Below are positions 4,801 through 59,131 of a stretch of 64,000 nt of DNA, in pieces. How positions within the stretch are numbered: position 1 is the first letter of the stretch; each line of letters opens with the position of its first letter. The stretch is taken from IMG/VR virus record IMGVR_UViG_3300042482_000679; one strand, given 5' to 3'. Source of the stretch: a virus. Under the pieces are notes generated by a model, which ran no database searches, was not told the origin of the DNA, and worked only from the letters and a program-made list of their open reading frames with translations. A program made the position numbers and the translations under genes.

Positions 4801-7800
4801 TATCAGGTAATAAAACACTATATGTTTTAATATCAATAACCCTTGTTTGTAAATCCTTGGTTGTATTTTTATTAATATTTGATTCTGAAAGGTTTTGAAT
4901 CTTTAAACCATTTTTAATGGACTCATTAATTTCACCATCAGTATATGCAGTATACAAGTCTTGAGAGTTGTAAAAGTAATTGAACTCATTAATCAATTTA
5001 GGGTAGAACCCTACCTGCATTGTGGTGTATTTAACATTATTGTCAACCGTTTCTGTTTGTAATGTTATTTTACCAACACCATTTAATGTATAAGTCTTGG
5101 CGGTGTTTTGATTAATAGGGTCGTAGTTTTGTTTGTAATCAAAATTACCCCAACATCCACCTAAAATATCCTGATTGGTTTGTACTTGTGTTTTATATCT
5201 ATGCCAAATCGCACCATATTTTAATACCCAAACATATGGAACCTTGTGTAACGCACCAAACTTTTTGAAACTTGCAAAAATATAATCTAAAGGTGTTGTC
5301 ACACCAGCAAGATTTGTTTTATATCTGTCCTTAAATGTTGCGAGTGGTAGTGAGTTTAAGAATAAAAACGCTGCCGCGACATAAGGATATTGTTCTTTAT
5401 TCTTTTCTTTAGCAACACCCTCCAATATTGCGTTAACAAAATAAGGTGTGTTCAACATAGAGGTTGTTGTTCTTACGGGTAAACCTGTTGTTGGGTAATC
5501 AACATAACCTTCTGTCGGTAACAAAGTTGCTGGTTGTCTTGTTATGTAAAACGTATTAACATTTGTTGTTAGTGCCGGTATTGCAGTGTTTAGATAGTTA
5601 AAGTTTGTTACAGGTCTGTTTGTATTATAATCATCAATACCCGTAAAATTTGAAATTATATTTTTTGGTTCGTAAACTTTATATGTGTTTGATGTGTTGT
5701 TTGCAACGTCAACCGAACCACCTAAAATATACTGACTTAAATTTTTAATGTTCCAATCCTGATTTGTAAACGGGAAAGTATCTACAATTTGTATTGGGTT
5801 TGTGCTAGTACTCTTTAAGAATTGTTGTAATTGTGGCGTTTGTGGTAATGAAACAAAAGAGTTTGAAACAGTATTTGACAAGTATTTTGTACTAAGAATT
5901 GAAAACGGGTTCTGAGTATAATTCTTAAGATATGGTGTAATATAAATGTCTTGTATAAATTCACCCCAAAATAAACCAGTTCCTTGGTTTGAAAACGCTT
6001 CTAATGTTTGGGTAAAATTATTAGCAGTAAAAGGATATTCTTTTAACTTTTGAGTTAAGTATGGATTACTCAATCCTAAAGATTCTATAATGTTAGTACC
6101 TTCCGTAATACCAATAATGTCACCAACAAAAGTTTTAGACGTATTGTCATTTGTAACTCTACCAAATCCTGTATAAAATTGGTATATTAATTGTCTCTCA
6201 TATATTTCATAAAAATATTTTAACTCTTCTTTATTAAGATAAGCTAACCCAATATTAGGGAATTCTAAAGCATTTAGATTTAATCTTTTTACTGTTGCAG
6301 CATCATTGTCTGCGGGAGGTTGTGAAATTGGTGGGTCATTTCTTTGCGCAGTACCTTTTAAATATTCTTCAACAAATTCGACCTCAGGCCATTTGTCGTA
6401 AAGATACCCTTTTGATTGATTTACAAACGCAATATCACCAGGATATGTTAATGTATATCTTGGTTGGTCATCGGTACCGTTATTTTCAACAAAAACTTGT
6501 GGCCAAGGGTATACAGGTTGTTGGGAATTATCTATAAATTCTTGACTAGCGTTTGCTGTTAACGGAACGTAGTTGACATCATCAGGACTTTTTATAGAAG
6601 TACTATTGTTATTTAAAACAACATTTTTTCTCACAGGGTCTTGTCTAACAGAATATGCCTGAATATGAACATCATCCATCAATCTGATAAACGCCTCTGT
6701 TGATGCCATAATCACCGCACTAATATTTCTAACTGTAGGTCTAAATCCAATTCCAGTATCAGCTCTTTCTACTTTATCAGCCAATTCAGCACTTAATTTG
6801 GTTTCCAATTCAGTAACTTTAGCGTCAATTTGAGATTCCATACTTTTTATTATGGTGTCAAATCTATTGGCACCAACAAAAACATAAAAGTTTTTCTTAA
6901 CTTCTTTCAATCCTTCGGGTGTCGCCTCTACCACTACACTAAAATATTGTTCAGCACTTTTTACAATAAATGCACTAATTTCTTCAGGTGTTGGGTATTT
7001 TATCGAGGTTCTGTCTATAAATGTTTTTTCCCAATCAATATTATCCAATTGAAAGTTTTCAATATAAATCGAAGGAGTTATTGGGTTTGGTATCTTAAAG
7101 TTTTGTTTTGCTTCAGCACCAAACGTACCGTTTTGTGCCAACTTAGTATTGTATGTTTGTGTAATAGCACTTAACTCACTTTGAGCGGTAACTCTTTGTG
7201 ATTGTGTTAGATTCTTTTTGAAGACATAAGCATACTGACCATCCTTTAAAACAAATGGTTTTGGGTCCAAAAATGTTGTAAACCAAGAATTTTTGGCGTC
7301 TCTGACACTTTTATAATATTGGTTAAGTGTTTTTTTATAAGATGTCGCATCCGTAATCGGCTGCATATCAACTTTCCTATATGAATTAATAATGTTCTGT
7401 TCAAATTGTTGTAATTTGTAACCTAATTCCATTATTGTTAGTTCAGGAAAATTCTTATCAATTAAACCTTTGGCTTTGTATTCAGAGTAAACTTCGTGCA
7501 TTTTTTGTCTACCCCTCTCATTAACTCGAGTAACACTCAGGTTGTTTTGAGATTGAGCATTTGACGGAATATTCTGACCCGCATTGTTCGCCGAATTATC
7601 ATCTGCAGACTCTGTTTCAACAATAGAGTTTGTGTATGTAAATGTTTTAGAATACATATGGGGTAATGCAATCAAATGCCCCATCTGAATTTCATTTAAA
7701 ATGTTATATTTGTATCCGTAAAATTTACAACTAACTTGGTAGTTACCACTCATTGTATTAAATCTCGCCTCAAATGTGTGTAGATTTAATTGGTATCTAA

Positions 7801-37414: not shown

Positions 37415-38734
37415 TTAACATCCGTTAGGGTCTGTCTGAACAATAACTCCTGAAGAATCTGTTCTGTACCAAGCGGTACCGTTAGACCAATATGCAACTC
37501 CTACAGGGTTTGATAATGGGTCAATTGTTTGATATAATGTCTCACCTAAGTTTGGTCCTACACCACCTGATACCGAACCATAAACTGTAATAGGACTAGC
37601 CGCACAAGCTAAGTTAGCGGTTGAGCCTGATGATAACGAGTAAACATAATTATTTCTTGTTGGTGTTGGTGTTGGTGTACTTGTTCCTGTGTTAGTTGGT
37701 GTTTGAGTATTAGTTGGAGTATTAGTTGCGGTATTAGTTGGTGTTTGAGTATTAGTTGGTGTTGGTGTGTTAGTTGCTGTTTGTGTTGGTGTTGGTGTTA
37801 ATGTTGGACATATTGAGAATCCATTTAATTCATAACCTGCAGAATCTAACTCAACAACTTGACCCGAATTCTGATAGAAACCTGACATATCAGTTGTTAC
37901 AGGTCCTGAAGGAGAATCATAGAAGAAAATATTTTGGTCAAAGAATTGATTTATACCATATATCTCAATAGACGTACCGTAATTACCACAAGCATCAAGG
38001 GCATTATTTGCGAAATTCACGGCAAATTGGAATCTAGCAGGTTCAGTTGTTGATGGTGTTGGAGTTGGTGTTTGAGTATTAGTTGCGGTGTTTGTTGGTG
38101 TTTGAGTAATAGTTGGTGTTGGTGTGTTAGATGATGTGTTGGTTGGAGTATTAGTCGGGGTTTGAGTTTGGGTACTAGTCGGAGTGTTAGTTGGTGTTTG
38201 TGTATTTGTAGGTGTTTGCGTTGGTGTACCTGTTTGAGTATTTGTTGGTGTTTGTGTTTGAGTTGATGTATTTGTTATAGTATTAGTCGGTGTCTGAGTT
38301 GGTGTATTTGTTGCGGTATTAGTTGGTGTTTGTGTTTGGGTATTACTTGGTGTGTTAGTTACAGTATTTGTTGGTGTATTAGTTACAGTATTTGTTGGTG
38401 TTGGTGTAGGCGTTTTGGTTTGAGTATTAGTTGGGGTTTGAGTATTAGTTGCGGTGATAGACGGTGTTGGAGTTGGGGTTCTTGTATTAGTTGGTGTTGG
38501 AGTATTAGTCGCAGTTTGAGATGGTGTTGGTGAAATAGGAGGGAATGTCTCCTCAACAATAGTAAATTGTGCTGATAAAGCAGCTTGAAACGTACCATTA
38601 ACCAACCAAATATTTCGTACTTGACCAGGTGTTAATAAGATATCGTATTCCCACATATTGTTGGAACACTCTTGATAAGAGAAAGTTAATCCCTGAGCTG
38701 TGTTATTAGTTAGTATGTATTTTTTACAAGCCAT
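37415..38734 (-). CDS. Mucin-like Thr/Pro-repeat protein B (putative virion decoration/fibre)
   Basis: Two long T-P-T/T-N-T/T-Q-T tracts separating small Cys-containing domains. Confidence 0.75.
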   Translation of the reverse strand: MACKKYILTNNTAQGLTFSYQECSNNMWEYDILLTPGQVRNIWLVNGTFQAALSAQFTIVEETFPPISPTPSQTATNTPTPTNTRTPTPTPSITATNTQTPTNTQTKTPTPTPTNTVTNTPTNTVTNTPSNTQTQTPTNTATNTPTQTPTNTITNTSTQTQTPTNTQTGTPTQTPTNTQTPTNTPTSTQTQTPTNTPTNTSSNTPTPTITQTPTNTATNTQTPTPTPSTTEPARFQFAVNFANNALDACGNYGTSIEIYGINQFFDQNIFFYDSPSGPVTTDMSGFYQNSGQVVELDSAGYELNGFSICPTLTPTPTQTATNTPTPTNTQTPTNTATNTPTNTQTPTNTGTSTPTPTPTRNNYVYSLSSGSTANLACAASPITVYGSVSGGVGPNLGETLYQTIDPLSNPVGVAYWSNGTAWYRTDSSGVIVQTDPNGC

Positions 38735-47129: not shown

Positions 47130-47849
47130 ATGATTAAGATTCCATTACCTAAAATTCTTTTTCTTGACATTGAGACTGTCGGACTAACAAAAGACTATGA
47201 CCATTGCAAAAAGGAATACCCAAAAATTGCCGAACAATTTGATAAGTATTTTGATTGGTTTTTGAAAAGGTTCCCTGAAGACCAACTGATTGGTAAAAAC
47301 GAAGATGAACAAAAAAATCTTGTGTTTTCTTCACGAGCAGCTTTGGTTCCTGAATTTGCAAAGATTGTTTGTATCAGTGTTGCGTTTGTTATGGAAAATG
47401 GTGATATTAAGAAACAAACATTCCACAACGATAATGAACAACACTTGTTGGTGGATTGTCAAAAGTTACTTGACCGTTGTGGTAGATTAGAATTTTGGTT
47501 GTGTGGACATAACCTTAAGAACTTTGATATTCCTATGATGGCAAAAAGAATGATTATCAACGGATTAATGCCACCATCAATCTTACCGTCTTATGACACA
47601 AAACCTTGGGAGATTAGAGCGATTGACACCAAAGAAATTTGGCAATACGGTGCATACACAGCAATTGGTTCTTTGGACCTTATGTGTACCTGTATGGACG
47701 TTCCATCTCCTAAAGAAGGTGAGGTTACAGGGGCTAAGGTTCACGACGCGTATTGGAATAAAGGTATGTTAAAAGAAATTGCCGAATATTGTGAAAGAGA
47801 TGTTCAGGTATTAATTGATGTTGTTCAAAAATTAAAAGCACTTATATGA
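47130..47849 (+). CDS. PolB-like stand-alone 3'-5' exonuclease (DEDDy)
   Basis: LDIETV, GHNLKNFDIP and YCERDV motifs. Confidence 0.8.
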   Translation: MIKIPLPKILFLDIETVGLTKDYDHCKKEYPKIAEQFDKYFDWFLKRFPEDQLIGKNEDEQKNLVFSSRAALVPEFAKIVCISVAFVMENGDIKKQTFHNDNEQHLLVDCQKLLDRCGRLEFWLCGHNLKNFDIPMMAKRMIINGLMPPSILPSYDTKPWEIRAIDTKEIWQYGAYTAIGSLDLMCTCMDVPSPKEGEVTGAKVHDAYWNKGMLKEIAEYCERDVQVLIDVVQKLKALI

Positions 47850-48454
47850 TTGATTTTGAATCAGACCCAGAATTAAACGATGAGATTAAAAGACTCTTCG
47901 ACGAAATTAAAAATTTTAAAGACGAGAATGATGATGAGGATTTGATGTCCGAAATTGAATCCCGTTTAGGTTTACCTTTTGACGAATTTGAAAAGTTATT
48001 AGGGGACGCCTTAACAAAAAAACCATTGTTCTATAAAAAACTACACGAAGATGCTGTAGACCCAAAGTACGCATATGAAACCGATTCAGGTTTTGATTTA
48101 CACAGTGTAGAAGAAATCCATTTCTTACCATTTGAACGTAAGTTAGTTCCAACAGGATTATCATTTGATATTCCTGAAGGTTTTGAAATTCAAGTAAGAA
48201 CTAAAAGTGGGTTGGCAATTAAACAAGGACTTATGGTTTTGAATAGTCCTGGAACTGTAGACCAAGGATACACAGGTGAGGTCAAAGTTATTCTAATGAA
48301 TATGAATAATATGGCGGTTACCGTTGAAAAAGGACAGAAGGTTGCTCAAGGCGTTTTATGTCCTGTAGAATCAGGTAAAAAAGTTTCTTTGGTGGAAGAT
48401 GAATTTGAGGATAAAGAACGTGGTTCAAATGGATTTGGTTCAACAGGAATTTAA
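47846..48454 (+). CDS. dut: Trimeric dUTPase with acidic N-terminal extension
   Basis: SGFDL, KSGLA, GTVDQGYTGE, KVAQ and RGSNGFGSTG motifs. Confidence 0.9.
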   Translation: MIDFESDPELNDEIKRLFDEIKNFKDENDDEDLMSEIESRLGLPFDEFEKLLGDALTKKPLFYKKLHEDAVDPKYAYETDSGFDLHSVEEIHFLPFERKLVPTGLSFDIPEGFEIQVRTKSGLAIKQGLMVLNSPGTVDQGYTGEVKVILMNMNNMAVTVEKGQKVAQGVLCPVESGKKVSLVEDEFEDKERGSNGFGSTGI

Positions 48455-52115: not shown

Positions 52116-52715
52116 ATGCCAATATCAGATAACCTAAAAACAATTTTTGTCCATATACCAAAAAACGCTGGTACTGCAATTACTAATAGTAAAATTGCAA
52201 GATTTTATATGGGTGGTCACGATTCGGCAAAAGAAATTAAAAATAAAGAACCTAAAAAATGGGACGAATATTTCAAATTTGCCGTCATTAGAAATCCTTG
52301 GGATAGGGTCGTTTCCAATTATGAGTATGCTCGTATGGAAAAAAGTTATTGGCACCACGTAAGTGACACGAATGTTGGCGCGGCTCATTTCGATTACCAT
52401 ACATTGAAAGATAAAACATTTGAGGAGTGTGTTAATATGTTGTATGAAGACAGGTCGTCTTTAAAACATCAAGGTTGGGCACCTCAATATGTGTGGATAT
52501 CTGATAATGAAAAAAATATTTTAGTTGATAAAGTTTTTTATCACGAAACTTTAGAAACTGATGAGGAGTTTAATAAGTTAATTCCTGATTTAGAAAAGGT
52601 AAACTTTAGTGATAGAAAAAGCAACAATTACAAAGATTATTATACTGAAGATTTGATACGTAAGGTGTCAGAGATTTATGAATATGATATAAATTTATTT
52701 AAATTCAAATACTAA
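52116..52715 (+). CDS. Sulfotransferase (Sulfotransfer_2-like)
   Basis: FVHIPKNAGT (5'-PSB loop), RNPWDRVVSNY (3'-PB) and YEYDINLFKF motifs. Confidence 0.85.
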   Translation: MPISDNLKTIFVHIPKNAGTAITNSKIARFYMGGHDSAKEIKNKEPKKWDEYFKFAVIRNPWDRVVSNYEYARMEKSYWHHVSDTNVGAAHFDYHTLKDKTFEECVNMLYEDRSSLKHQGWAPQYVWISDNEKNILVDKVFYHETLETDEEFNKLIPDLEKVNFSDRKSNNYKDYYTEDLIRKVSEIYEYDINLFKFKY

Positions 52716-52718
52716 ATT

Positions 52719-53168
52719 ATGATTTATTGGTTTACAGGCCAGCCAGGCCACGGAAAAACGGTTTTATCTAACCATTTAAAAGGTTATTTAGAATCAAATT
52801 ACAAAAAAAATGTCATTCACATTGATGGTGATGACATTAGAGAAATCTTTCAGAATAAAGACTATTCAAGGGAAGGTAGAATTAAAAACATAACATTCGC
52901 ACAAAACTTGGCACATTTTTGTAGTCACAAAGGATTTGACGTTGTTGTTAGTGTTGTTGCACCATATAAAGAAGTTCGAGATTCTTTTAAGGAAAGAATG
53001 GGTGAAAATATGGTAGAATTATATGTACACACAACTGAGGAAAGAGGACGTGAAAATTACCACGTCGCAGATTACGAAGCACCAACTGAAAATTATGTTG
53101 ATGTTGATACAACAGATGAATCACCAGAAGGTTCATTGGTTTACATTATTAATGAATTAGATATATGA
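52719..53168 (+). CDS. cysC: Adenylylsulfate (APS) kinase
   Basis: WFTGQPGHGKT P-loop, IDGDDIR, DYSREGRIKN and DYEAP motifs. Confidence 0.8.
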   Translation: MIYWFTGQPGHGKTVLSNHLKGYLESNYKKNVIHIDGDDIREIFQNKDYSREGRIKNITFAQNLAHFCSHKGFDVVVSVVAPYKEVRDSFKERMGENMVELYVHTTEERGRENYHVADYEAPTENYVDVDTTDESPEGSLVYIINELDI

Positions 53169-53506
53169 AGAAATTTAACACCTATTTTTGTGACATAGAT
53201 GGCACAATTTTTAAGTATAGAAAGTTTACTGATATACCAGTCACAAAACCTGAAGTAATAACATCAGTTGCTGAAAAATTAAATGAATGGTTTTATGAAG
53301 GTCATCATATTGTTTTAACTACCGCAAGACCTGAAAATTTGAGAAGCCACACTGAATTTGAATTAAAAGATAATAATATAAAATACAATCAATTGGTTAT
53401 GGGTATCGAAAGAGGTCCAAGATATCTAATAAATGATATGGACCCTGATAAAGAAGGTGAAAGAGCAATTGGTATAAACTTAAATAGAGATAAAGGATTT
53501 GAATAA
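53165..53506 (+). CDS. Small HAD-family phosphatase
   Basis: CDIDGT, LTTAR and YLIND motifs. Confidence 0.7.
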   Translation: MKKFNTYFCDIDGTIFKYRKFTDIPVTKPEVITSVAEKLNEWFYEGHHIVLTTARPENLRSHTEFELKDNNIKYNQLVMGIERGPRYLINDMDPDKEGERAIGINLNRDKGFE

Positions 53507-53507
53507 A

Positions 53508-53912
53508 ATGGAAAATTGGACTAAAAAAATTCACGTAGGGTCGTCCTTACCCGCTAAAGATGGACAATACGCAATGTTTGTTGGTAGATGGCAACCACTC
53601 CATCCTGGACACCAAGAACTTTTTAAACAAGCAATGGATGAAGGTAAGAATGTTTTAATTTGTATTAGAGACATTGCCCCTGACGAAAAAAATCCATTTG
53701 CTGCCGAAGAGGTTAGACAAAATATTATGGAACATTACTCAAATGAATGTGAGGAAGGAAAGGTAAAAGTTATGGTTATTCCAGATATCTGCTCAATAGA
53801 ATTTGGAAGAGGAGTTGGTTACGATATTATTGAGCGTATACCACCACAGCAAATTGCAGATATTTCAGCAACTAAAATTCGTGAACAAATGAAAAAAGAA
53901 GGTAAATTATGA
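53508..53912 (+). CDS. HIGH-motif nucleotidyltransferase (cytidylyltransferase-like)
   Basis: GRWQPLHPGH, NPF and ISATKIRE motifs. Confidence 0.75.
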   Translation: MENWTKKIHVGSSLPAKDGQYAMFVGRWQPLHPGHQELFKQAMDEGKNVLICIRDIAPDEKNPFAAEEVRQNIMEHYSNECEEGKVKVMVIPDICSIEFGRGVGYDIIERIPPQQIADISATKIREQMKKEGKL

Positions 53913-54142
53913 TTGATGTAAAAATTAGATACAATACGGTTTGTGATGATAATCACATGTATTGGAGAATTTTAATAAACGGTGTTGAACATACTTGTTC
54001 AAATATCTTAATAGAAACACCCATGCACACAACTATTGATACGGTGTATGACCCATCAAGAGAAAAAATGGTAACAAAACACCATATCTCTTGTATGGCA
54101 TCTGAAGTTATTTGGAAGGGTGATGTTGTAATTGTTAAGTAA
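53909..54142 (+). CDS. Hypothetical protein
   Basis: 77-aa ORF overlapping both neighbours in operon fashion. Confidence 0.55.
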   Translation: MIDVKIRYNTVCDDNHMYWRILINGVEHTCSNILIETPMHTTIDTVYDPSREKMVTKHHISCMASEVIWKGDVVIVK

Positions 54143-54363
54143 TGGTAAACGTTAAAAGACATATTGGTAAAACTATAAGTTACCGTTTGATTGGGACACT
54201 TACAACAGTGTTAGTAGCATATTCTTTTGGAGCGGATATAAAATTAGCTTCCTTAATGGGTGTTGGTGAATTATTATTTAAACCAGTAATCTACTTTTTA
54301 CACGAAAGAGTTTGGTACAAATACATAAAATTTGGGTTGATAGAAAAAAAAGATGGAAATTAA
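54142..54363 (+). CDS. DUF2061-like small membrane protein
   Basis: KTISYRLIGT...YFLHERVW motif. Confidence 0.75.
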   Translation: MVNVKRHIGKTISYRLIGTLTTVLVAYSFGADIKLASLMGVGELLFKPVIYFLHERVWYKYIKFGLIEKKDGN

Positions 54364-54915: not shown

Positions 54916-55344
54916 ATGAAAAAAATTTCACATAGAGGTAATTTAAATGGTCGTATTCCTGAGAGAGAAAACTCACCTGATTATATTGTTGAGTCTTTAT
55001 CTCTTGGTTATAATTGTGAGATTGATGTTTGGGTGGTTAATGATGAATATTTTTTAGGTCACGACAAAGCTCAATACAAAATTGAGGAGACATTTTTAGA
55101 AAGCAATTTATTATGGTGTCACGCTAAAAATATTCAAGCTCTCGAAAAGATGTTAAAGAATAAAAAAATACATTGTTTTTGGCATCAAAATGATGATGTT
55201 ACTTTAACATCGAAAGGTTTTATTTGGACCTATCCAAATAAAGAATTAACAAAAAAATCAATCTGTGTTTTACCTGAACTAAATTCTTTTGATATGGGAG
55301 ATTGTTATGGGGTCTGTTCAGATTATATTCAACAATACAAATGA
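54916..55344 (+). CDS. GDPD/PI-PLC-like phosphodiesterase
   Basis: ISHRGN, EN, EIDVW, LGHD and WCHAKN motifs. Confidence 0.7.
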   Translation: MKKISHRGNLNGRIPERENSPDYIVESLSLGYNCEIDVWVVNDEYFLGHDKAQYKIEETFLESNLLWCHAKNIQALEKMLKNKKIHCFWHQNDDVTLTSKGFIWTYPNKELTKKSICVLPELNSFDMGDCYGVCSDYIQQYK

Positions 55345-58534: not shown

Positions 58535-59131
58535 ATGACACCAACATTTGAAATTGTTCAGGAATTTGAAAGTAAAGTTGCGGAGTTTTTTGGAGCACCG
58601 TTCGCAGTTGCTTTTGATAGTTGCACACACGGGATTGAAGTTGTTCTTAGATATTTGGAAACTAAAGAAATTTCAGTGCCAACAAGAACATACTTATCCA
58701 TCCCATTTTTAGCTAATAAATTAAACATTGGTTTAGAATGGAGAATCGAAGCTTGGCAAGATTACTACTACATTACAGACAGAGTAATTGATGCCGCTGT
58801 TTTATGGAAAAAAGATTCTTATATCCCAGATACATTTATGGGAATTAGTTTTCAATACCAAAAACACTTATCTTTAGGTAGAGGTGGGGTTATATTATTA
58901 GATAACGAACACGATAAAAATCAAATTAAAAAAATGTCATACGACGGTAGATTACCTATGATACCTTGGAGAGACCAAAACATCGACACTTTTGGTTATC
59001 ACTATTATATGACGCCAGAAACCGCAAAATTGGGTTTATCAAAACTAGAGGACGCAATCAACACAGAACCAAAAAAATGGGTGGTTACAGATTGGCCAGA
59101 TTTAACAGAAATGGATATTTTTAAAAAATGA
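58535..59131 (+). CDS. Short DegT/DnrJ/EryC1-family PLP sugar aminotransferase
   Basis: FE..VAEFFGAPFAVAFDSCT, DAA and SFQYQKHL..GRGG motifs; only 198 aa. Confidence 0.75.
   Translation: MTPTFEIVQEFESKVAEFFGAPFAVAFDSCTHGIEVVLRYLETKEISVPTRTYLSIPFLANKLNIGLEWRIEAWQDYYYITDRVIDAAVLWKKDSYIPDTFMGISFQYQKHLSLGRGGVILLDNEHDKNQIKKMSYDGRLPMIPWRDQNIDTFGYHYYMTPETAKLGLSKLEDAINTEPKKWVVTDWPDLTEMDIFKK

Follow-up and report, generated by a model that had tools for sequence, protein, structure and literature searches.

Known sulfate-activating systems and the phage cassette

Activation of sulfate is universal in the sulfur cycle. To our knowledge, only two types of sulfate-activating enzyme are known, Sat and CysDN. 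Here, we analysed a 64,000-nucleotide stretch (the window) of the IMG/VR virus record IMGVR_UViG_3300042482_000679, a 142-kb contig of a giant marine phage with a CheckV completeness of 47%, and more specifically a cassette of six genes at positions 52116-54363. These encode a sulfotransferase, an adenosine 5'-phosphosulfate (APS) kinase, a small putative HAD-type phosphatase, a 134-residue nucleotidyltransferase (NTase), a 77-residue protein (orf77) and a DUF2061 membrane protein. Our results make it quite likely that the NTase represents a third type of ATP sulfurylase, derived from nicotinamide mononucleotide adenylyltransferases (NMNATs), that feeds 3'-phosphoadenosine 5'-phosphosulfate (PAPS) to a glycan-sulfating enzyme of the phage.

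The closest described systems are the bifunctional PAPS synthases and Sat-CysC proteins (human PAPSS1, 1x6v; Aquifex aeolicus, 2gks). As proposed for the phage cassette, they adenylylate sulfate and then phosphorylate the product at the 3' position, and they share with it activities that are adjacent or fused, in either order, a first enzyme with a HIGH-type Rossmann fold and a kinase homologous to CysC. In contrast to Sat (~350-400 aa), the NTase of the cassette has only 134 aa, lacks the PUA-like N-terminal domain, matches the Sat Pfam family below its threshold and is nearer to NMNATs; moreover, the membrane-tethered orf77/DUF2061 partner of the cassette has no counterpart in known PAPS synthases. 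CysDN catalyses the same reaction as that proposed here and is often coupled or fused to CysC, but its fold is unrelated (a PAPS-reductase-like ATP pyrophosphatase plus a GTPase), and neither the contig nor the related viral records or the sampled Marinimicrobia family contain it. The archaeal and NadM NMNATs (1f9a; 1ej2; NadM-Nudix 2qjt and 2qjo) are the closest to the NTase in profile and fold, sharing the motifs GR(F/W)QPxHxGH, NPF and (I)S(A/G)TxIR. Unlike them, the NTase family has new, near-invariant IRD and GRxVGY motifs, and its partners are sulfur enzymes rather than NAD enzymes. Finally, compared with the sat-aprMBA operons of sulfur oxidisers such as Allochromatium vinosum (PMC3779200, PMC2211403), several Pelagibacteraceae loci have a small NTase homologue, not Sat, in the sat position. 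The phage has no apr genes, and this context therefore bears on the NTase family and not on the cassette itself. The pathway is of a known kind; its starting enzyme and membrane-tethered partners would be new.

The NTase family is closest to archaeal and NadM NMNATs

The NTase (53508..53912, + strand) matches PF01467 (CTP_transf_like) with 35.9 bits (cut-off 21) and contains the motif GRWQPLHPGH. This above-threshold match, the HxGH and ISxTxxR motifs and a Rossmann-like fold place it in the HIGH-motif nucleotidyltransferase superfamily. Its scores with the NMNAT equivalog models TIGR01527 (27.8 vs. 181.2 bits) and NF002243 (34.7 vs. 127 bits) are below the cut-offs, and these matches cover residues 25-97 only. 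The ATG at 53508 is the likely start, in preference to an upstream TTG at 53499, because it is preceded by an AAAGGA box, lies 1 nt past the stop codon of the HAD gene and gives a protein of 134 aa, in agreement with the length of the homologues (134-139 aa).

We aligned 59 family members with 35-50% identity to the window protein. The family motifs follow the order GR(W/F)QPxHxGH ... IRD ... DEKNP ... IPDI ... (Y/F)GRxVGY ... ISATxIR, of which the first, third and last are common to NMNATs, and residues R27, Q29, H32, G34, H35, R54, P63, G100, R101, G104, S120, T122 and R125 are invariant or nearly so. The profile of these 59 sequences has its best matches to the Methanocaldococcus jannaschii NMNAT (1f9a, E 2e-14), NadM and the M. 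thermautotrophicus NMNAT, and then to phosphopantetheine adenylyltransferase (PPAT); Sat was absent among the matches listed at E < 10. The alignment to 1f9a is interrupted at the IPDI motif (1f9a residue 75) and continues from residue 110 onwards, with ~10 residues in the family against ~35 in the NMNAT. The family has thereby lost a segment of ~25 residues that in NMNATs follows the IPDI strand and precedes the GY..ISAT region. This segment, located after the fourth strand, helps NMNATs to form the NMN site and to accommodate their bulky acceptor. This deletion, together with two new conserved arginines, R54 in IRD and R101 in GRGVGY, would fit a small anionic acceptor.

The AlphaFold (AF2) model of the NTase (pLDDT 92.8, pTM 0.85) is a single Rossmann-like domain. 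With Foldseek, the alignments to NMNAT, NadM and PPAT were limited to the first ~80 residues of the model, and ATP sulfurylase was not among the best matches. Structural alignment with VIA-align gave Z 10.0 over 110 residues with the archaeal NMNAT 1f9a, Z 9.8 over 111 residues with the PPAT 4nah, Z 9.1 over 113 residues with the NadM 2qjt and Z 7.5 over 117 residues with the Thermus thermophilus Sat 1v47, followed by Z 7.0 with the TagD-type cytidylyltransferase 2b7l; other Sat catalytic-domain chains reached Z 5-6, with aligned lengths that varied. The fold matches at Z 7-10 all belong to the HIGH superfamily. By sequence and fold, the NTase is a cut-down relative of the archaeal/NadM NMN adenylyltransferases.

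The preliminary description of this locus, made from its sequence, had proposed that the 134-aa protein may be a minimal ATP sulfurylase. The activity it suggested is favoured by the fusions, synteny, phyletic pattern and apr operons presented below. A reduced Sat was considered and rejected, given the sub-threshold PF01747 score, the nearest profile and fold relatives among NMNATs, and the lack of both the PUA-like N-terminal domain and the ~200-residue catalytic domain. The active-site motifs of the yeast and Penicillium Sat are QxRNP-HxxH and GRDHAG; in the NTase, HPGH is preceded by GRWQP rather than QTRNP, and GRGVGY lies at a place comparable to GRD, although the motif differs. An ATP-sulfurylase activity of the NTase would be an independent invention within the HIGH superfamily, since its profile and fold relatives are NMN adenylyltransferases and not Sat. 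Such chemistry has a precedent, because Sat is itself a HIGH-superfamily enzyme that can be aligned structurally with the NTase, as seen with 1v47.

Gene fusions and genomic context of the NTase family

We retrieved 5,522 NTase homologues of near-equal length, with 1,187 representatives at 50% identity. Among the long representatives at this identity, 20 are APSK-NTase and 8 are NTase-APSK fusions, as confirmed with Pfam, and phrog_10255 corresponds to a kinase-NTase fusion present in cultured phages of Xylella, Xanthomonas and Stenotrophomonas. In viral loci, the APS-kinase gene is located immediately upstream of the NTase in 78 of 80 cases, the other two loci starting at the contig edge, and the kinase-NTase arrangement is therefore far from chance. 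The fusion or synteny with cysC in other phages, by which the preliminary description proposed to check its reading, thus exists in both forms, with fusions in either order. A DUF2061 gene follows the NTase in 46/80 of these viral loci and a Sulfotransfer_1 gene precedes it in 35/80. Among 80 cellular loci, from Pelagibacteraceae, Marinimicrobia, Flavobacteriales, Acidobacteriota, candidate-phyla bacteria and one marine group III archaeon, the APS kinase is adjacent to the NTase in 65.

The sulfotransferase accompanying the pair belongs to Sulfotransfer_2 in our contig, to Sulfotransfer_1/3 in most phages and to Sulfotransfer_5 in Marinimicrobia. In a Marinimicrobia single-cell genome, Sulfotransfer_5 is followed by a full canonical CysC (E 4e-67), then by the NTase and finally by a 71-aa ORF, so that three unrelated families of PAPS-dependent sulfotransferases flank the kinase-NTase pair.

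A different context is found in at least seven kinase-free Pelagibacteraceae loci, where the NTase gene is immediately followed by a gene for an AprM-like multi-pass membrane protein and then by aprB and aprA. The aprM-aprBA order is the arrangement of lineage-I APS reductases (PMC2211403), and sat sits before aprMBA in the A. vinosum operon (PMC3779200). In those Pelagibacteraceae operons, the NTase holds the position of sat. APS is the sole metabolite common to APS kinase, APS reductase and the PAPS-using sulfotransferases. In three Pelagibacter genomes (G001, G003 and G005), aprA is located 0.3-1 Mb from the NTase, i.e., there is no apr-operon context.

Several additional features of these loci were observed. 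An 8.7-kb Pelagibacteraceae locus (L061) contains the kinase-NTase pair and a match to AprA, and both contexts may be combined in some SAR11 genomes. A gene of the TenA/PqqC family (haem-oxygenase-like) is found directly upstream of NTase-aprM-aprB-aprA in the Pelagibacteraceae loci L044 (7272-7937) and also in L038, L073, L083 and L092. One Pelagibacter lineage encodes, downstream of its short APS-kinase-like gene and NTase, a HalD/WelO5-like Fe/2OG halogenase-type protein (L091, 8349-9200; homologous ORFs in L042, L049, L082, L084 and L090) and an enoyl-CoA hydratase. In the Xylella phage Salvo (L001, NC_042345), the fused APS-kinase-NTase gene (5578-6324), annotated as 'kinase' (gp32), adjoins a DNA topoisomerase, and gp24 (1381-2076), annotated as a cysteine dioxygenase, is located a few kb from it; no sulfotransferase is annotated in the 12-kb Salvo stretch. 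This Salvo-like context hints at a role in sulfur metabolism besides glycan sulfation.

Other long NTase homologues, of ~320 aa (P0124-P0139) and 431 aa (P0133) and present in many metagenomic relatives, appeared as fusions and were rejected as functional partners, the additional parts being HNH or GIY-YIG/NUMOD3 homing-endonuclease modules in frame upstream. Homing elements therefore seem to have targeted the NTase gene repeatedly, which agrees with its conservation in phages. Tandem duplications were also found, both of the NTase (P0163, 192 aa) and of DUF2061 (P0301, 142 aa).

Distribution of Sat and CysD in genomes carrying the NTase

The phyletic test relied on a family-level sample of Marinimicrobia (n = 38) around the single-cell genome mentioned above. 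In these 38 genomes, both Sat and CysD are absent (0/38 each), while the NTase is present in 20 and the APS kinase in 21. The kinase accompanies the NTase in all 20 genomes, as the neighbouring gene in 19 and at a distance of ~1.4 kb in the remaining one; the single kinase found without an NTase is located at the end of a contig. Because APS kinase and sulfotransferases are found there without a known source of APS, the NTase is the obvious candidate for making it. A phylum-wide sample contained the NTase family in only 3 of 101 genomes, too sparse a distribution for a phyletic test.

In three Pelagibacter genomes, one of them a complete chromosome, Sat and CysD are likewise absent and aprA is present. 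Candidatus P. ubique was described as devoid of cysDNCHIJ and sat, keeping cysC, cysQ and aprA (PMC5069961). Regarding viruses, the preliminary description had noted no sat or cysDN gene in the window, and this absence extends to the whole 142-kb contig (47% complete), where we found no match to Sat (PF01747) or to CysD/CysH-type proteins (PF01507). Similarly, 20 larger viral records have no above-threshold Sat and no PF01507 gene. Five of them are at least 90% complete (343, 373, 309, 113 and 105 kb), so that a canonical sat elsewhere in the genome, which the preliminary description saw as one of the findings that would overturn its proposal, was observed neither in the contig nor in these five related genomes.

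The databases name members of the NTase family 'cytidyltransferase', 'phosphopantetheine adenylyltransferase' or 'putative NMNAT'. Bona fide CoaD and NadD are encoded elsewhere in all five cellular genomes tested, and these names are unlikely to be right because the CoaD and NadD roles are already filled by other genes.

The other genes of the cassette

As the preliminary description stated, six tightly packed genes occupy 52116-54363, all co-oriented on the + strand in the ORF list. They overlap or are separated by 0-3 nt: the largest gap measures 3 nt, overlaps take the form of ATGA and TAATG, and 11 nt are shared with the next gene, a methyltransferase. Given these tight junctions and overlaps, the six genes are read as one putative translationally coupled operon. 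A scan for promoters and terminators gave no signal exceeding the shuffled controls.

The APS kinase (52719..53168, +; 149 aa) belongs to the CysC family and matches PF01583 with 64.3 bits (E 1.7e-17, cut-off 21.1). It is under all NCBIfam equivalog cut-offs (78.6 vs. 127) because of its shortened lid. Its top sequence matches in the PDB are all APS kinases (E 8e-11 to 2e-5), and its P-loop, its DGDxxR and (S/A)PY motifs, Asn57, Arg87, the aromatic residue and the second arginine are shared with the canonical Marinimicrobia CysC, only the lid being shorter. In solved APS kinases (Penicillium chrysogenum structure), both arginines and the aromatic residue contact APS.

The sulfotransferase (52116..52715, +; 199 aa) is of the Sulfotransfer_2 family (PF03567, 48.5 bits, E 1.7e-12, cut-off 22) and is the only PF03567 match in the contig; it also matches phrog_3347 (1.4e-10), labelled 'galactose-3-O-sulfotransferase'. 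By eye, its translation contains PKNAGT and RNPWDRVVS, which correspond to the PAPS-binding motifs of such enzymes, i.e., the 5'-phosphosulfate loop PKxGT (5'-PSB) and the 3'-phosphate motif RNPxxRxxS (3'-PB). Therefore, this enzyme needs PAPS rather than APS.

The small putative HAD-type phosphatase (53165..53506, +; 113 aa) contains motif I (DIDGT), with Pfam and NCBIfam matches that are all under the cut-offs (HAD_PNKP, 21.7 vs. 27.6 bits; Hydrolase_3). It matches HAD-containing phage proteins in phrog_1238 (1.6e-9) and phrog_415 (2.3e-8) and weakly resembles the phosphatase domain of phage polynucleotide kinases. One relative (P0149) is a HAD-NTase fusion. This gene is a dispensable, optional insert in the cassette, since it is present in only 7/80 related viral loci.

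Downstream of the NTase, orf77 (53909..54142, +; 77 aa) is followed by the DUF2061 gene (54142..54363, +), encoding a two-helix membrane protein (PF09834, 58.4 bits, E 1e-15, cut-off 23.1). The AF2 model of orf77 is a small all-beta domain (pLDDT 90.5), with R7, N9, W19, R20, T41, K57 and H59 as invariant residues. We found no Pfam, PHROG, NCBIfam or Atlas match for orf77 and no structural match, the best Z being 2.5. Among the longer DUF2061 homologues, 51 of 58 are orf77-DUF2061 fusions, with orf77 as their N-terminal domain, and the two proteins are indeed two halves of one protein in many relatives. In addition, DUF2061 is fused to the NTase in P0175 and P0338, and it follows the APSK-NTase fusion P0122. 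Hence orf77 and DUF2061 are presumed to form a membrane-tethered accessory of the NTase.

Proposed pathway and alternative functions

The six genes would constitute one operon that both makes and uses PAPS. In the initial step, the NTase would adenylylate sulfate (ATP + sulfate -> APS + PPi) through its HxGH and ISATxIR motifs, in an acceptor pocket cut down for a small anion and lined by R54 and R101. The kinase would then phosphorylate the 3'-OH of APS to give PAPS, a step well supported by homology. The Sulfotransfer_2 enzyme, whose family assignment is clear, would finally sulfate an acceptor, most likely a glycan made by the surrounding glycosyltransferase island. Judging from the fusions, orf77 and DUF2061 may be a split membrane-anchored accessory that tethers or assists the NTase. 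As for the HAD protein, our guess is an optional helper, most likely a 3'-phosphatase removing inhibitory PAP or, alternatively, a pyrophosphatase that drives the unfavourable first step forward. Given the location of the cassette in a glycan-biosynthesis island, it is plausible that the glycans of a mucin-like coat are sulfated.

Comparative genomics strongly supports an ATP-sulfurylase activity of the NTase that would feed the kinase and the sulfotransferase. Extended to the family as a whole, we consider it reasonably likely that these NTases are a third, independently evolved class of ATP sulfurylases, with an NMNAT-like scaffold of roughly one third of the size of Sat, supplying or consuming APS in SAR11, SAR406/Marinimicrobia, candidate-phyla bacteria and many marine phages. 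The phage version would be a PAPS factory tethered to the membrane, in which orf77-DUF2061 would act as a new accessory subunit.

Several observations weigh against an ATP-sulfurylase activity. All the evidence in its favour comes from genomic context and homology, and the nearest characterised relatives of the NTase are NMN adenylyltransferases and PPAT, not sulfurylases. With PF01747, the NTase scores 17.4 bits, under the cut-off of 24.3, over the HxxH region only, and its relatives score 14-19 bits. The sulfate-binding roles of R54 and R101 are inferred from conservation rather than from a liganded structure. Many of the genomes free of Sat and CysD are incomplete single-cell or metagenome assemblies and, in other diverse carriers, Sat is found in 1/12 and CysD in 3/12, so that the NTase is not a strict replacement. 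Finally, in the Xylella phage Salvo, the Stenotrophomonas phage DLP6 and contig L003, the kinase-NTase fusion is surrounded by early or DNA-metabolism genes and has no sulfotransferase nearby. Supplying PAPS for sulfation is therefore not the sole function of the pair; in these three, its product may enter the sulfur assimilation of the host, have another purpose or be a different adenylylated compound.

Taken together, the three alternatives that we considered are unlikely. In line with its database names, the NTase could activate another acceptor that carries a phosphate and serves the glycan island (e.g., NMN, phosphocholine, glycerol-3-phosphate or a sugar phosphate), its adjacency to the kinase being incidental and APS coming from a Sat or CysDN of the host, which may have its own sulfurylase. 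The best family matches of the NTase are indeed cytidylyltransferase-like proteins, NMNAT and PPAT, the smallest known relatives, such as the TagD-type cytidylyltransferases, are similar in size (2b7l), and the gene is located among glycan-biosynthesis genes. But an incidental link does not agree with kinase fusions in both orders and near-universal adjacency, nor with the occurrence of the family in aprMBA operons and in genomes without a glycan context. Moreover, the acceptor-pocket segment of NMNATs is deleted in the NTase, genuine CoaD and NadD are found elsewhere in carrier genomes, and the Marinimicrobia with CysC and sulfotransferase have no other source of APS, all of which makes this explanation improbable.

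It is equally improbable that kinase and NTase together make another 3'-phosphorylated adenylate, from a small non-sulfate anion or metabolite, as a cofactor or a signalling or anti-defence molecule. Such a pathway would follow the two-step logic of CoA synthase, in which PPAT is followed by dephospho-CoA kinase, and it would be consistent with the setting of the fused genes in Salvo-like siphophages, DLP6 and L003, as well as with the short and divergent kinase partner of Pelagibacter (136 aa, E 9e-11). Yet the phage kinase keeps the canonical CysC residues, including both arginines and the aromatic residue, the recurring neighbours (three families of PAPS-dependent sulfotransferases and APS reductase) all point to APS, and the PAPS of phages that have no sulfotransferase could just as well enter the sulfate assimilation of the host. 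A non-catalytic or regulatory NTase, acting as a nucleotide-binding scaffold or sensor for the APS kinase, seems very improbable. The APS-kinase-like domain of fungal ATP sulfurylase offers a precedent of a catalytic domain turned regulator, and the unusually small size of the NTase (~115-residue core) and its pairing with the kinase would fit such a role. However, the NTase also occurs kinase-free beside aprMBA. The near-invariance of HxGH, ISATxIR and the arginines over the 59 sequences argues for retained catalysis, and genomes with the kinase-NTase pair have no other APS source.

If the NTase is an ATP sulfurylase, the existence of a small third type in SAR11, Marinimicrobia and their phages would alter the way in which marine genomes and metagenomes are interpreted with regard to sulfur metabolism. 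According to current descriptions, SAR11 has no ATP sulfurylase (PMC5069961). The NTase would explain the presence of cysC, cysQ and aprBA without sat or cysDN in SAR11, providing the missing partner for both the AprBA sulfite-oxidation route and the orphan cysC. Giant phages would bring a complete sulfation pathway for decorating glycans, and a sulfurylase of 134 aa would provide a compact component for regenerating PAPS enzymatically. In the literature, we found no description of this NTase family or of a third ATP sulfurylase type, and nothing relevant on DUF2061 function or on phage PAPS pathways.

Genomic surroundings of the cassette

The cassette is located within a glycan-biosynthesis island that extends from ~45.9 to 60.1 kb and ends at PhoH. 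Besides its glycosyltransferases (GT4-like, GT2+GT4, GT2 and GT10-like), the island holds three methyltransferases, a HAD-sugar-1-phosphate nucleotidyltransferase, a DegT-type fragment and a GDP-mannose 4,6-dehydratase. Between glycosyltransferase genes of the island, a PolB-exonuclease-like 3'-5' exonuclease (PF10108) and a dUTPase are encoded at 47130-48454 (+). A 142-aa ORF at 54916-55344 (+) has phrog_34507 (function unknown, E 6e-27) as its sole match; by eye, its N-terminus (SHRGN...PERENS) resembles the start of glycerophosphodiester phosphodiesterases, a resemblance without Pfam support. The DegT-type fragment is a 198-aa ORF (58535-59131, +) whose match to the 360-position DegT/DnrJ/EryC1 aminotransferase model is restricted to positions 25-76; it adjoins the GDP-mannose 4,6-dehydratase and is either a truncated gene or a fragment.

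Outside the island, three ORFs of 439, 189 and 635 aa at 37415-41260 (-) all match phrog_15511. At this location, the GC skew is extreme (+0.31 to +0.43 at 38-42 kb), suggesting that the proteins are repetitive and biased in composition.

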